A stretch of 64,000 nt of DNA from assembly GCF_988242995.1 (NCBI RefSeq), contig NZ_OZ547044.1. The stretch is one strand, 5' to 3'. Every line of letters begins with the position of its first letter. The stretch's first letter is position 1. The stretch comes from a plasmid. Made by a program: the position numbers. Of the stretch, positions 25,201 through 31,200 are shown one piece after another.

Positions 25201-28200
25201 ATCACAGGGGCTTTTTTCTCGGTCATAAGGGACTCCGGGGGCAGTGTTGTCACCGTCTGATTATATCATAATACCATGTTTCTGTTACGAATTATGTATC
25301 CGGAATGTCTTGTTTTTCGGGTTTTCAGATGCGCGGTGTACGAAACTATCAGGCTGTCGGTTTGTGGTTTTGCTTACTTTCGGACACACAGGCGGCATGG
25401 TGTACGTAATCGCTCGATTTCGGACACAGAAACGCTGTAGCCCCGCAATCCGAGGGTTCGCTAATAGCCGTCTGGTCAAAAAGTAGTCTTAGCGTAAGTT
25501 ATTTTCCCTTTTCCAGGCGGCCCCCTGATGCGCGTAGCGCATGGGAGCGAAGCGATACGACCGCGCAGTATTGCGCGGGGTTTTTCTTTTCCGGCTCAGA
25601 AGTGAGTGAATCACTTAAGTCAAATGACCAGAAGCAGGTTAATACGGTAGTTCACCCCCCCTTCCTGCCAGACAATAGCGGATTGTCAGTGTCACAGGAG
25701 GTTCTGTACGCGGTCGGAGTGGTCACGACAAGGCGCAGCCGCCGTCGGGGCGTATCTCCGCGTTAGCGGGCCGTGAGGGCCGCTTACGAGCGTGTTACTC
25801 AATACTTACAGCGACACTACTTACCGCGACGCACAACTATAGTTACAACACCCATCATTAAAAGCGACACTACTCCCGGCCTTCGGCCGGGGGCGGCGGC
25901 GCTTTTCAGTGGTGGGGAGGGGCTCCTGGCTGGCAAACCGGCGCCGGTTTTATGACGGATTTCCTTTTGAATGCTGTAACTAATGTGGTTCTCTGGTCGG
26001 GGCCCGTCGCGAAGCGATGGGCGCTACTTTTATCTGAGCGACGCGGACGCTTGCGGCCGCTGTAAGCGAAGGCCTCACTGAGTTATTCACAGAGCCGGCA
26101 AAGACAAAAGATCTCCCTGCAGCTTGCAATGCAGGGGATTAAAAAAGTGGGGTAAGACTATTTTGCAGGTTTGCTGTTACCCTTTTGCTAAATTCCCTGT
26201 TTATTCATTTGCGGGTTTTTGTGGATAAGTGAAAACCTGGTGCGAACGTCACAGGGTATACGTGCTCAAACCAGCGATGGTCCGACGGCCGGAACGTCAG
26301 ATGGATAAAAACCAGGCAATTTCATGAATCCGGACAAACGCCAAAAGCCCCGGGCAGGGGCATAGAAAAAATGGCACTGTTGCAAAGTTAGCGATGAGGC
26401 AGCCTTTTGTCTTATTCAAAGGCCTTACATTTCAAAAACTCTGCTTACCAGGCGCATTTCGCCCAGGGGATCACCATAATAAAATGCTGAGGCCTGGCCT
26501 TTGCGTAGTGCACGCATCACCTCAATACCTTTGATGGTGGCGTAAGCCGTCTTCATGGATTTAAATCCCAGCGTGGCGCCGATTATCCGTTTCAGTTTGC
26601 CATGATCGCATTCAATCACGTTGTTCCGGTACTTAATCTGTCGGTGTTCAACGTCAGACGGGCACCGGCCTTCGCGTTTGAGCAGAGCAAGCGCGCGACC
26701 ATAGGCGGGCGCTTTATCCGTGTTGATGAATCGCGGGATCTGCCACTTCTTCACGTTGTTGAGGATTTTACCCAGAAACCGGTATGCAGCTTTGCTGTTA
26801 CGACGGGAGGAGAGATAAAAATCGACAGTGCGGCCCCGGCTGTCGACGGCCCGGTACAGATACGCCCAGCGGCCATTGACCTTCACGTAGGTTTCATCCA
26901 TGTGCCACGGGCAAAGATCGGAAGGGTTACGCCAGTACCAGCGCAGCCGTTTTTCCATTTCAGGCGCATAACGCTGAACCCAGCGGTAAATCGTGGAGTG
27001 ATCGACATTCACTCCGCGTTCAGCCAGCATCTCCTGCAGCTCACGGTAACTGATGCCGTATTTGCAGTACCAGCGTACGGCCCACAGAATGATGTCACGC
27101 TGAAAATGCCGGCCTTTGAATGGGTTCATGTACAGCTCCATCAGCAAAAGGGGATGATAAGTTTATCACCACCGACTATTTGCAACAGTGCCGATCTGGC
27201 GACTGGATCGTCTGAGCCGTTCCCTGAAAGACTTGATTGAAATGGTTAAACATCTGGAGTCGAAAGGTATCGGTTTAAAAAGCCTTCAGGAATCCATCGA
27301 CACAACCTCCAGTTCCGGAATGCTGATATTTCATCTTTTTGGGGCACTGGCAGAATTTGAACGCAACCTGACAAGAGAGAGAACTCAGGCCGGGCTTCAG
27401 GCAGCACGAGCCAGAGGACGTAAGGGCGGCAGGCCGAAAACACTGAGTAAGGATAAACAGGCCCTTGCTGTTCAACTCTATAACGAGAAAAAACATACAG
27501 TTGCGCAGATTTGTGTGTTGATGGGGATATCGAGGCCAACGCTGTACAAATACATAGAGTCAGCCAGGTTGTTCAAGAAATGAACTTAGCGTACGTTTTC
27601 GTACGGTTGGGCTTCAAACCCCTCAGTCAATGACGCGGGAAGAGTATCTTTCTCTCTTCGCCAATGAAGCCGATCGAAATATTGCCTACGACCCGGAACC
27701 CATCGGTCGCTATAACGTCGCCCCGGGTACCAGGGTGTTACTTCTGAGCGAACGCGACGAACAGCTGCAGCTCGATCCGGTTCACTGGGGTTACGCACCA
27801 GGGTGGTGGGATAAACCGCCATTGATTAATGCCCGGGTTGAGACCGCAGCCAGCAGCAGGATGTTTAAACCTCTTTGGCAGCACGGTCGGGCGATCTGCT
27901 TTGCTGATGGCTGGTTTGAATGGAAGCGTGAAGGAGACAAGAAGCAGCCCTATTTCATCCACCGTAAAGATGGCCAGCCAATCCTCATGGCCGCGATCGG
28001 AAGCACTCCGTTTGAGCGTGGTGATGAGGCGGAAGGGTTTCTGATTGTCACGGCCGCGGCTGATAAAGGTCTCGTTGATATCCATGATCGGCGCCCGCTT
28101 GTCCTGGTACCGGACGCCGCCCGGGAGTGGATGAAACAGGACGTTTCGGGTAAGGAGGCTGAAGAAATTGCTGCTGATGGAGCTGTGTCCGCTGATCATT

Positions 28201-31200
28201 TCTTATGGCATCCTGTAACGCGCGCTGTTGGTAATGTTAAGAATCAGGGACCAGAGCTCATCGAGGCTGTTGGCTTATGAGATGTCGGAGGCTGATCCGT
28301 GTTTTAAAGCTAATGTACGCATACATTAGCTTTAAAATTAGCCGTGCATCGTAACTAATTTCAATCATCAATATGGACAGCTATCACGACAGGGAGATTT
28401 TAAAAGCTTCAGACTTATGCATTAAAAGCAGCGCAAGTCTAATAAGTAATTATCATATTGAATATATAATTCATTTTTACAATTTATTATTGTTAGGCAG
28501 TAAAATTTAATTGTTGAATTTACCTATAAATAAAGATATTAATAAAATGTCTCCATTTTCAATAAAGGAACTTATCATGAGCTGGTTTAATGACGTATTT
28601 GGATTCGAAGAATCAGACTATGCAGAGACTCAGGCTCGTTTTTTCCAGGAAGGCCCTTTTCTTCATACCAGAAGCCAGCCATCTGTTTCTTATCGTTCTG
28701 GTATTCTGACCATGCCGAGTCTGGCCGAATTAAGGAAAGCGGTCAGCAATCTTGTGACAGAACCGTATGGAAGGTGCAGATTTGACATACTTGAGGCTGA
28801 TGCATATGACCTCCACCGAAAATCCGAAGTGAAGGGCGCGCTGATCCAGGTTGCCAGTCAGTTCAACTTACTCGAAATGCCATGTGAATATACAACGCCA
28901 GAAAAGGGGATTACCGATTACCAGTTTGATCATACTCAAGGACCTGCCTGCGCTATGGCCTGTGCTGCTGCCACAGTATTTCGTAATTATCTTGTCCCGA
29001 TGGGGTCACAGACTGGACAATCCACTACCAGCCAGCTTAACACGCTGGCTGATATGGAAAAGGCTATCGGCATTGATGGCATACGAATGAAAAACGGGTA
29101 TGCCCTGATGTCGGCTAATACGGTGCAGGCTATTAGCCGTTATATTGCATCGCTGGATGAGCAAATGCGGGACAGGCTCAGACAGGAGTTACGCATCGGA
29201 TTGCACTCAGATACTGAAGTCACTATACCAGGAGTACCTGAAGATCAGTTTGTGTCTCAGGCTCTCTGCTCTGCCTTACCTGTCGCGTATAACTCATCTC
29301 CCCGGGAAGAATGGGCTCCTTTTGCATCGCTGGTACTGGAAGCCAGTTACGAAGCAACGTTGCTGGCAGGTGTTCTGAACTACCGGCTTACAGGCAATCC
29401 GAGAGTATATGTGACTATGGTCGGAGGCGGAGCATTTGGTAATGAACCTGGCTGGATAATTTCTGCTCTCAGGCGTGCCTTATATCTGGTCAGCCATCAT
29501 AATCTGGAGGTGATGTTTGTAAGCTACCGACATACTCCTGCAGCTTTATATTCATTAATTGAGGAATTTTGACCGATACAGTTTGTCATTCTAAATAAGA
29601 ACAACATATAATGAATTCGACAGCATTTAATTAAGGAGTGATTTATGAATGGGTATATCGTCACAATCATTATCGCATTCATTTTCGGTCCCATTCTGGC
29701 GTTACCGGTAATGTTCTTAGGTTTGTTTAATATAATGGATTTTGCGCTGTATTCATTCCCCATATTTTTCTTTTGTATTATGGGGTACAGGCAAGATAAG
29801 AAGGTTAAGGATGCTTTTAAGGGATTAATACCGGGCCTAATTGTATCTCTGATTATGACGACTTTAGTTCTTTTTGTTAAAGATCAGAGCGACTGTACGA
29901 ATAAATATGATACAGGTAGTCTGTCTGCTGCTGTGTGTGAGAGACTTAAGGGACCAGGATTTAGATAACGGAAGCCTTTACGGTGGCGCAGCTCGTCACG
30001 GAACGCGTCAGCCTGCTCTATGCCCGGCAGATGGTTTTGATTCAATGCGTGATCATGTGGTCATAGTCACCGCCATTGCAGCGGCGCCGAGAGACGTCGT
30101 TTATCAGTCTGTGTCGTGAGTTGAGTCCTGATCGCAGAAGTTCAGACCGCCCAGACTTTTGAGTTGTCTTAAGTCACTGAGATAGTCCTTCCCGGGCACT
30201 CCCATTTTTAGACACGCCGGACATCTTAACTTAGCCATAGGCAGATAATACAACTTTGCTGCCACAGCATTGGTGCGCTTAATGCGTTTTATGTTAAATA
30301 TCAAATACTTACTTCGTTAGCGTGACATAAGTTGATGTGTTTGTCGTGTCGTGACAGCACAATCAGGGATGTCATCCCCTAACGAGGCAAGGACTAAGTT
30401 AATGAACAGAACAGCTCAAGAAGTACAGACTTGCTGGCTTGAGAGCCGGCAGCCTGAAGATCGTACCGGTAATGAAGCGGAAAAATTTTCGGATGAATGC
30501 TGGAAGAACGGTCTGCGGCTGGATAAAAGCCCGTCTGTGCACTATCAACTTCTGATGGAAACCATCCGCAGGACGCTGATCCCGCGGCCAAAGTGAAGGC
30601 CTCCGTCGGTCTCCACTATTATCGCTACCGGGTTAGCCGTCAGGCATGGCCCGGTTTAAAAAGATATGCTGACAGTTCTGCTGCAGTTATATCAAAATCG
30701 AGTTGCTGGATTAATTCTGCCAGTTTTTTCTCTGCAGTATCACGATCAAACTGATTTTGTACTATCTGGAGAGCAACCTGTTTTAGCTCCGGAGGGAGGT
30801 GTTCCAGATTGATATGATTATAACCCGAAATGTCATCATCCGAATTTTCGAAGAGCCAGCCGTAACTCATAAGGTCACCTGTTCTATTTCACAAATTTCC
30901 AGACACCTGGCGGTACCCGGTCATACAACTTTCCCATCGTCATCTCCGCCAGCCGGTGATCAACCGCGGCATTGAAATGCTCAAGCTCATCATCTGACAG
31001 AGAATATTGATTTTTTTCTATTATCCTTTCCAGGGTTTCCTTTGATGTACAGCGCCTTAGTCGAAAAATCCATTCCTGTTTCGTCATTAGTTTTATTTAT
31101 CCTGAGGTATCCCGGTAATATCATTCTGGAAGATGCTTTTCTTTCAGTCGGTTATGAGTGAACCATTTTGCATATGTGATGTAAACCACAAAAGTTAAGA

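Follow-up and report, generated by a model that had tools for sequence, protein, structure and literature searches.

A yedK/SRAP gene remnant at the end of a Tn3-family transposon on a pKpQIL-like plasmid

To cross-link abasic sites, SRAP proteins use both the alpha-amino group and the thiol of Cys2, the residue left at the N-terminus once Met1 has been removed (PMC9436759). The closest known relatives of the gene considered here are E. coli YedK (PDB 6NUA, 6KCQ, 2ICU) and three intact plasmid-borne alleles of 223-224 aa, WP_040119813.1 (L002), QJK52674.1 (L003) and WP_020316917.1 (L004). For the DNA on its left, the counterpart is an unnamed 3.87-kb Tn3-family transposon of ETEC plasmids (H10407 p948, NC_017724.1, ~70.96-74.83 kb; L005, 3560-7430). 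The RefSeq annotation of ETEC p948 contains no mobile-element feature that would supply a name, and a full-text literature search with the sequence of the 38-bp terminal repeat found nothing. In pKpQIL, Tn5403 is the Tn3-family element reported as truncated by IS26 (He et al., 2016, PMC5142620), which suggested that the remnant beside SRAP' might be Tn5403.

The locus compared here with these systems lies on a pKpQIL-like KPC plasmid, within the window, by which we mean the whole stretch of 64,000 nucleotides that was analysed. From left to right, its features are the following.

26373..27192, minus strand: IS26, 820 bp, with 14-bp terminal repeats GGCACTGTTGCAAA at both ends and the transposase ORF at 26425..27147 (minus strand)
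27193..27583, plus strand: tnpR', the 3' 391 nt of a serine-resolvase gene, encoding residues 60-188 of 188 plus the stop codon
27585..27622, minus strand: IRR, the 38-bp right terminal inverted repeat of a Tn3-family transposon, GGGGTTTGAAGCCCAACCGTACGAAAACGTACGCTAAG as read on the minus strand, with its outer end at 27622
27590..27605, no strand: CGTACG-TTTT-CGTACG, inside the 38-bp transposon repeat; all complete copies examined have it at either end, in IRL as well as IRR
27623..27627, plus strand: TCAGT, the first five retained SRAP bases and the putative, expected 5-bp target-site duplication
27623..28280, plus strand: SRAP', the remnant, nt 18-675 of a 675-nt yedK-like gene, with the residual ORF at 27630..28280
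28302..28337, no strand: a perfect 16-bp AT-rich inverted repeat, TTTTAAAGCTAATGTA-cgca-TACATTAGCTTTAAAA, 22 nt past the SRAP stop codon

The 216-aa product of the ORF at 27630..28280 (plus strand) is a YedK/SRAP homologue. The conserved SRAP blocks that the preliminary description had recognised are borne out by matches to the Pfam profile PF02586 (E 6.5e-48, score 163.5 against a cut-off of 27.1 bits, profile positions 27-214 of 214) and to the YedK-subfamily profile PRK09951 of NCBIfam (437 bits against a cut-off of 349, positions 10-222 of 222). An intact allele covers positions 1-222 of the latter, the window protein only 10-222. Aligned without gaps to residues 9-222 of E. coli YedK, the product is identical at 177 of 214 positions (83%); save for the N-terminus the two are of equal length, and the active-site residues Asn75, Glu105 and His160 are common to both, being kept in the ORF as N67 (27828), E97 (27918) and H152 (28083). 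What the remnant lacks in comparison with E. coli YedK are residues 1-8, including the Met1-Cys2 nucleophiles, and a ribosome-binding site and promoter of its own. The absence of the N-terminal MCGR motif with Cys2, also described previously, is thereby confirmed: the product begins with MTREEY, corresponding to YedK residues 9-14, the in-frame codons before its ATG read ...SVRFRTVGLQTPQS, and neither an in-frame start codon nor a usable Cys is found upstream of 27630, back to the TAG at 27555. As the product starts at the old residue 9, the part of the thiazolidine chemistry that depends on Cys2 would be lost, and on the basis of the published mechanism SRAP' is predicted not to be cross-linked covalently to abasic sites in ssDNA (PMC9436759). 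A PADLOC scan of the SRAP' remnant gave no match.

Where the gene was cut can be read from plasmids that still carry it whole, a comparison proposed in the preliminary description. The closest intact alleles, in L002, L003 and L004, share 96.7-99% nucleotide identity with the window from 27622 to the stop codon; their N-termini read MCGRFSQS(M/L)TREEY with a GGAGG ribosome-binding site ahead, and they locate the breakpoint between transposon and SRAP gene at 27622/27623. The alignment with E. coli YedK, likewise proposed there, runs 1:1 from residue 1 for the intact alleles (PDB YedK chains match with E ~1e-131) and from residue 9 for the window ORF. Across the breakpoint position, intact alleles on related Klebsiella plasmids read ggaggtaaccATGTGCGGACGTTTTTC/TCAGTCAATGACG, with ...CGTTTTTC/TCAGTCAATGACG as the longer reading to the left, while the junction in the window reads ...GGGCTTCAAACCCC/TCAGTCAATGACGCGG as against ggaggtaaccATGTGCGGACGTTTTTC/TCAGTCAATGACGCGG in the intact alleles. 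BLAST homology of the window to intact loci begins at 27622-27624, and plasmid BLAST breaks exactly at 27622: matches to query 63-731 are intact genes, those to query 11-64 the transposon end only. Because the intact alleles continue to the left of 27622/27623, the native promoter, the ribosome-binding site, codons 1-5 and most of codon 6 have been lost from SRAP' by truncation. The 3' side is shared, the intact alleles and SRAP' having the same flank; its 16-bp palindrome belongs to the native gene and is kept behind the intact genes in L002 and L003. In a terminator scan requiring a G+C-rich stem and a T run, this repeat at 28302..28337 fell outside the criteria. The intact 5' end of the SRAP gene is present in 168 PLSDB records.

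The cause of the truncation, which the preliminary description did not contain, is the end of a Tn3-family transposon. The 38-bp repeat begins with GGGG, ends with CGCTAAG and occurs once in the window with 0 mismatches (0/100 matches in the shuffle control); by sequence, its identification as a terminal repeat is not a matter of chance, the 38-mer being identical to the right end of complete copies elsewhere. With 0-1 mismatch, and paired with an inverted partner with 1-3 mismatches, it flanks 3.87-kb tnpA-res-tnpR units in L005, L006, L010, L011 and L012. Complete copies are found on ETEC, E. albertii, Salmonella and E. coli O182 plasmids, with unrelated right flanks; to the left of the breakpoint the window equals their right end base for base. 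Their tnpA matches the NCBIfam 'Tn3 family transposase' NF033527 with 1057 bits, and their TnpR has 188 aa. No perfect 5-bp target-site duplication surrounds the complete copies sampled, the best being GAATA/GTATA in L006.

Compared with the right-hand 430 bp of the ETEC transposon, the window is 99.5% identical over 27193..27622 and its 38-bp IRR is identical, so that ~11% of that transposon is left, without tnpA, res, IRL (the other end, absent from the window) and the catalytic domain of tnpR. The resolvase fragment tnpR' matches the 3' portion of the complete 188-aa tnpR genes of L005 (6825-7391) and L010 (4326-4892) with 99.5-100% identity. Its C-terminal 129 codons remain, and the N-terminal catalytic part with the Ser in MLIGYARVSTDDQ is absent. 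The recombinase described earlier as IS26-truncated is thus indeed truncated, matching Pfam Resolvase only at positions 69-145 of 145 plus HTH_7, but it is the transposon's own tnpR rather than an independent neighbour. The transposon remnant in the window can neither move nor resolve. Tn5403 resembles the element flanking SRAP' in belonging to the Tn3 family, in the type of plasmid and in being cut by IS26; it was rejected as its identity, as TnpA and TnpR are only 28% identical and the gene order is divergent versus co-directional in Tn5403. The actual Tn5403 remnant of the window is found at 5575..~9.7 kb, where tnpA and tnpR point the same way.

To the left, IS26 adjoins tnpR' at 27192/27193 and truncates the transposon to its right. 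Identical DNA is annotated as 'IS6-like element IS26 family transposase' in L001 and L007. The 8-bp flanks of the element differ (GAAAAAAT versus GATCTGGC), so a target-site duplication is absent, which argues for a deletion or recombination event rather than simple insertion.

Taken together, the ORF is very probably the non-functional 3' part of a plasmid yedK/SRAP gene that was cut by a Tn3-family transposon, later itself truncated by IS26. In this scenario, the 3.87-kb transposon (IRL, tnpA leftward, res, tnpR rightward, IRR) inserted into codon 6 of the SRAP gene, as the junction sequence shows, where its right end abuts ...TCAGTCAATG. The remainder of the gene was thereby parted from the promoter, the GGAGG site and ATG-TGC-GGA-CGT-TTT-T(C). 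IS26 would subsequently have deleted all that lay leftward of codon 59 of the resolvase gene: the start of tnpR, then res, tnpA, IRL and the 5' SRAP stub, leaving 430 bp of the transposon; the cut itself is visible in the window, its mechanism presumptive. The block with its two scars has since spread unchanged on pKpQIL-like and other Klebsiella plasmids. For the ancestral state, a complete transposon within the SRAP gene with TCAGT on either side, the left junction would read GGACGTTTTTCTCAGTGGGGTYTGAAGCCC. No PLSDB record covered >=80% of a synthetic left junction (SRAP 5' stub, TCAGT and IRL) or of a query with intact tnpR beside SRAP', and metagenome contigs scanned for an exact 30-nt pattern of the left junction gave 0 matches. 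Since the ancestral state was thus found in neither PLSDB nor the metagenome contigs, we can only infer the order of events and the 5-bp duplication.

A product starting from the old residue 9 would have no Cys2 amino or thiol group in its active site and would miss the first strand of the fold; judged by the published chemistry of YedK, the thiazolidine DNA-protein cross-link should be impossible for it. Moreover, no Shine-Dalgarno sequence was found at the ATG of the ORF and no promoter-like site by a consensus scan of the plus strand from IS26 to the ATG, so that little or no protein is expected. A hybrid promoter from the IS26 end was considered and discarded, as TTGCAA is followed after 17 bp by CTGGAT, a poor -10 hexamer, and the consensus scan returned none. 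RNA-seq of pBIC1a was likewise set aside as evidence of expression: this is a 170-kb pKPN3-like plasmid with a 'putative resolvase' beside Tn4401, in another context (PMC6286996), and no SRAP gene is annotated in its first 50 kb. The remnant is therefore most likely inactive. Counter to a dead remnant are the 216 codons that are still open and the retention of Asn75, Glu105 and His160. The changes private to the window lineage, one synonymous and one non-synonymous, are too few for a selection test, and as the copies are too recent to show decay, loss of function is unprovable from sequence alone.

The preliminary description had left the choice between a truncated, inactive gene and a repurposed one. 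The intact plasmid alleles support 5' truncation, and nothing was found for repurposing, to which we give a slight chance: a Cys-less SRAP protein, translated from the internal ATG through read-through from IS26 and tnpR', could serve as a non-covalent binder of abasic sites or ssDNA, or as a ring-opening enzyme promoting strand cleavage. Besides the intact ORF, this could draw on the conservation of Glu105 and His160, which act in opening the ring of the abasic site, on the finding that Cys2-blocked or C2A YedK still binds DNA and gives strand cleavage instead of a cross-link (PMC9436759), and on the presence of the unchanged block on hundreds of successful plasmids. However, upstream ribosome-binding and promoter-like sites are both absent, and not one but eight residues have been lost, including, according to the YedK structures, a buried N-terminal strand that would position the N-terminus in the active site. 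C2A and Cys2-blocked YedK form no thiazolidine cross-link, as is predicted for the remnant (PMC9436759), but these laboratory mutants have a correctly placed N-terminal amine and the full fold and keep Schiff-base/lyase chemistry, while the remnant is eight residues shorter. Hitch-hiking on a plasmid backbone that spread recently accounts for the persistence, the copies being 99-100% identical, and in hundreds of other plasmids different events have left only 5' fragments of the same gene, which argues that it is dispensable there. That a remnant present at low level opens the abasic sugar ring via Glu105/His160 without shielding it, so causing ssDNA breaks or competing with the chromosomal YedK, has a very slight probability; if it did, mutagenesis or the SOS load could be altered in hosts of pKpQIL-type plasmids.

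Two further explanations concern the origin of the short form. That IS26 itself, or else site-specific recombination at the cgtacg repeat, made the cut without any transposon insertion might be suggested by an IS26 copy 430 bp away and a palindromic repeat close to the start of the gene. The repeat exists as reported, one base to the left of the 27591..27606 originally given, namely at 27590..27605, and as CGTACG is itself palindromic the pair counts as a direct and an inverted repeat alike. Yet, contrary to the earlier placement, it does not lie at the junction but inside the terminal repeat, 17 bp from 27622/27623, and both ends of every complete copy carry it. The breakpoint falls exactly, to the base, on the outer end of the 38-bp Tn3-family repeat, the same end recurs in five other contexts, and IS26 ends at 27192, away from the SRAP junction; such a truncation is contradicted by the junction alignment and extremely unlikely. 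Next to no probability attaches to a natural short SRAP subfamily that begins at this Met and uses another nucleophile, the case named as a refutation in the preliminary description, even though databases list the 216-aa protein, WP_015065500.1, as an ordinary 'SOS response-associated peptidase' and at least 1000 contigs record it. Such a subfamily is refuted by the comparisons: the nearest relatives of the protein begin with MCGRF behind their own ribosome-binding site, what precedes the ORF is transposon DNA, the PRK09951 profile is matched only from position 10 on, and the start Met is the internal residue 9 of the intact gene, occupied by Leu (TTG) in L002 and by Gln in E. coli YedK.

SRAP' as a truncation product is most likely an ordinary pseudogene, labelled in databases as intact. 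RefSeq and UniRef carry its exact 216-aa product as 'SOS response-associated peptidase / abasic site processing protein', a protein predicted to be unable to perform the SRAP reaction, and because the remnant is named as an intact protein, surveys of SRAP genes on plasmids will count too many copies as functional. The block of IS26, tnpR', inverted repeat and SRAP' occurs on 213 PLSDB plasmids. It adds one further case of a resistance plasmid on which IS26 has eroded an earlier Tn3-family insertion, and its two-scar junction (IS26 at tnpR codon 59, IRR at SRAP nt 18) offers a handy lineage marker for pKpQIL-type and related Klebsiella plasmids. The next gene along the plasmid, at 28574..29569, is a member of a large, uncharacterised family whose predicted fold is macrodomain/PARG-like.

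The open reading frame to the right of the transposon end clearly encodes a SRAP/YedK protein, judged by its sequence. Its product matches Pfam PF02586 (E 6.5e-48; profile positions 27-214 of 214) and NCBIfam PRK09951 (437 bits, cut-off 349; positions 10-222 of 222), and is identical to E. coli YedK at 177 of 214 residues in an ungapped alignment, with Asn75, Glu105 and His160 of YedK kept as N67, E97 and H152. Neither profile is matched over its N-terminal part: the product starts with MTREEY, the equivalent of YedK residues 9-14, and Cys2 is missing. By sequence it belongs to the YedK subfamily, but it lacks the N-terminal Cys that defines a functional SRAP protein. 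As the preliminary description had it, the in-frame codons upstream of the ATG read SVRFRTVGLQTPQS, with no in-frame start codon back to the TAG at 27555.

Features around the SRAP remnant
26373..27192: IS26, cutting the resolvase gene tnpR within codon 59
27585..27622, minus strand: 38-bp right terminal inverted repeat (IRR), reading GGGGTTTGAAGCCCAACCGTACGAAAACGTACGCTAAG
27630..28280, plus strand: SRAP remnant, 216 aa, SRAP/YedK protein
28574..29569, plus strand: 'hypothetical protein' WP_019725651.1, 332 aa, directly downstream of the remnant

When window positions 27560..28290 were used as a BLAST query against 72,556 plasmids, a sharp homology breakpoint emerged: in one set of records the alignment begins no earlier than query position 63 (window 27622), at 96.7-99% identity; in another it is confined to query positions 11-64. 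To the first set belong three plasmid records (L002, L003 and L004) whose genes, of 223-224 aa, bear the annotation SOS response-associated peptidase. These intact alleles, which align with crystallised YedK residue for residue from position 1, read ggaggtaaccATGTGCGGACGTTTTTC followed by TCAGTCAATGACGCGG and translate as MCGRFSQS(M/L)TREEY; at the same junction the window reads GGGCTTCAAACCCC followed by TCAGTCAATGACGCGG, the true boundary between transposon and SRAP gene lying between 27622 and 27623. This comparison with related plasmids, which had been proposed beforehand, exposes the 5' loss: gone from the window gene are the promoter region, the GGAGG ribosome-binding site and 17 nt at the start of the coding sequence. 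The ATG heading the remnant is an internal codon, being Met in L003 and L004, Leu (TTG) in L002 and Gln in YedK.

What interrupted the gene? The 38-mer adjoining it is present in a single copy in the window, and its GGGG...TAAG form is presumably that of a Tn3-family terminal inverted repeat. In a search with 27193..27622, some records continue leftward into a full resolvase gene. Complete copies of the transposon (L005, L006, L010, L011 and L012) form a 3.87-kb unit delimited at one end by this 38-mer (0-1 mismatch) and at the other by an inverted partner with 1-3 mismatches. It comprises a leftward transposase of ~1000 aa (NCBIfam 'Tn3 family transposase', 1057 bits) and, rightward, a 188-aa serine resolvase that stops one base short of the terminal repeat, with res in the intergenic region between them. 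The element ends at the identical base, yet its right flanks differ between ETEC, E. albertii, Salmonella and E. coli O182 plasmids and the SRAP gene in the window; as the flanks vary by plasmid type while the end base is constant, the transposon is a discrete mobile element. We regard it as a Tn3-family element, left without a name here. The neighbouring recombinase, correctly noted earlier as IS26-truncated, is the transposon's own tnpR, while the cgtacg...cgtacg inverted repeat (27590-27595, 27600-27605) exists but lies 17 bp inside the junction rather than at it, within the terminal repeat; every complete copy has the motif at both ends.

Tn5403, the element reported to be IS26-truncated in pKpQIL (PMC5142620), was rejected as the identity of this transposon, as its remnant lies elsewhere (5575..~9.7 kb) and is only 28% identical. 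In the E. coli O182 plasmid L012 (CP024249.1), the flanks of the complete copy at 1552-1561 (…GTGTTCTC) and 5432-5441 (…GGAGAACA) are mutual reverse complements, a pattern that suggests intramolecular transposition with inversion and not a simple insertion. Two more GGGG...TAAG 38-mers in the window, GGGGTTTGACGCTCAACGGAACGGTTTCACACGTTAAG and GGGGGCCGCCTGGAAAAGGGAAAATAACTTACGCTAAG at 24031..24068 and 25488..25525 (minus strand), have no neighbouring transposase and may be solo terminal repeats left by decayed Tn3-family elements around DUF2913/ProQ-FinO-like genes.

IS26 has left only the C-terminal 129 codons of tnpR (Pfam Resolvase positions 69-145 and the HTH), and the catalytic serine region is gone. 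No 8-bp target duplication was found at this IS26, which is more in keeping with a deletion or recombination than with a simple insertion; neither the left end of the transposon nor a 5' stub of the SRAP gene was found within the window. Most likely, we infer, the transposon had inserted into the SRAP gene before the IS26 event, since a one-ended element without transposase should not insert, one-ended transposition being the conceivable exception. No PLSDB record has a SRAP 5' stub joined to the left terminal inverted repeat or a complete tnpR adjoining the remnant, and an exact-pattern scan of metagenome contigs for the intermediate gave zero matches.

SRAP proteins form no DNA-protein cross-link without the Cys2 thiolate (PMC9436759). 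A product beginning at the old residue 9 has neither the alpha-amino group nor the thiol of Cys2 in its active site and, from matched YedK structures, would also be without the fold's first strand. The ATG has no Shine-Dalgarno sequence in front of it, and no promoter-like site was found on the plus strand between IS26 and the ATG; a TTGCAA at the IS26 end is followed by a poor -10 hexamer. We are thus highly confident that what remains of the gene is inactive. That the frame is open and Glu105 and His160 are kept does not argue against this; the copies are too young for decay, the private changes in the window lineage being one synonymous and one non-synonymous. The only non-trivial alternative is that a Cys-less protein is weakly expressed and binds abasic sites or opens their ring without shielding the site, and this appears very improbable.

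At least 80% of 27193..28400 is present in 213 PLSDB plasmids, mostly from Klebsiella and largely at 99-100% identity, with IS26 at the same position in both inspected records carrying the block. The exact 216-aa sequence occurs in at least 1000 contigs, named 'SOS response-associated peptidase' and 'Abasic site processing protein', and PGAP treats it as an ordinary CDS (WP_015065500.1). An intact SRAP 5' end with native upstream DNA is found in 168 plasmids. A further large class, comprising numerous other plasmids from Klebsiella, Enterobacter and E. coli (uncounted; e.g. L013 2501-2603; records H56-H62, H201-H208), carries just a ~100-120-bp 5' fragment, spanning roughly -33 to +85 with the ATG-TGC, where no feature is annotated. 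Here the gene was destroyed independently and in a second, common manner; SRAP has thus been destroyed repeatedly on these plasmids. Nothing here is new in kind: on resistance plasmids it is routine for IS26 to erode an inserted Tn3-family element, and DNA identical to this exists in hundreds of public records; the practical worth of the remnant is as an annotation warning and a lineage marker.

The gene downstream, preceded by a spacer of 30-37% GC, falls in a 1.18-kb segment (28373..29548) missing from L003 and L004. Searches of Pfam, NCBIfam, PADLOC and PHROGs gave no match for WP_019725651.1, yet its homologues, of ~335 aa, number at least 6440 across Proteobacteria and beyond, with the invariant motifs QVASQFNLLE, TQGPxCA and GGGxFGN. 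The closest structures to its confident AF2 model (pLDDT 94.2, pTM 0.93) are bacterial-type poly(ADP-ribose) glycohydrolases (3sih, 5zd*; E ~1e-5, TM 0.45-0.59, 10-12% identity) and macrodomains, and the protein probably represents an uncharacterised ADP-ribose-processing family.

The window matches pKpQIL-like IncFII(K)/FIB plasmids at 99.7% over 17.6 kb and has blaKPC inside Tn4401-like genes, a unit that confirms it as a KPC plasmid of pKpQIL type.

Other mobile elements in the window
4755..5574: second IS26, same orientation as the other copy and 1 mismatch apart, truncating a different Tn3-family element
5575..~9.7 kb: Tn5403-type element, transposase (5575..8481) and resolvase (8549..9190) co-directional
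~12223..22250: Tn4401-like unit with KPC carbapenemase gene, transposase and resolvase
14249..15133, minus strand: KPC-family carbapenemase gene (NF012141, 685 bits)
17326..20355, minus strand: Tn3-family transposase of the Tn4401-like unit
20465..22180, plus strand: large resolvase of this unit, 571 aa, tyrosine-recombinase-like domain

The second IS26 likewise has no 8-bp duplication. The element at 5575 can be assigned to the IS26-truncated Tn5403 described for pKpQIL (PMC5142620), based on gene order and on the name PGAP gives to a comparable, though not directly aligned, arrangement in pBIC-1a. Window positions 1..915 are a 99.9% identical second copy of the 3' end of Tn5403-type tnpA (7600..8514), and next, at 884..2716, comes a further Tn3-family transposase fragment (profile positions 380-954); the left edge is a mosaic of transposon fragments. 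In the right third, direct repeats of ~0.4-0.8 kb that are 89-99% identical (49447..50031, 52633..53416, 60655..61038 and 63224..64000) apparently constitute a repeated intergenic or gene-start module.
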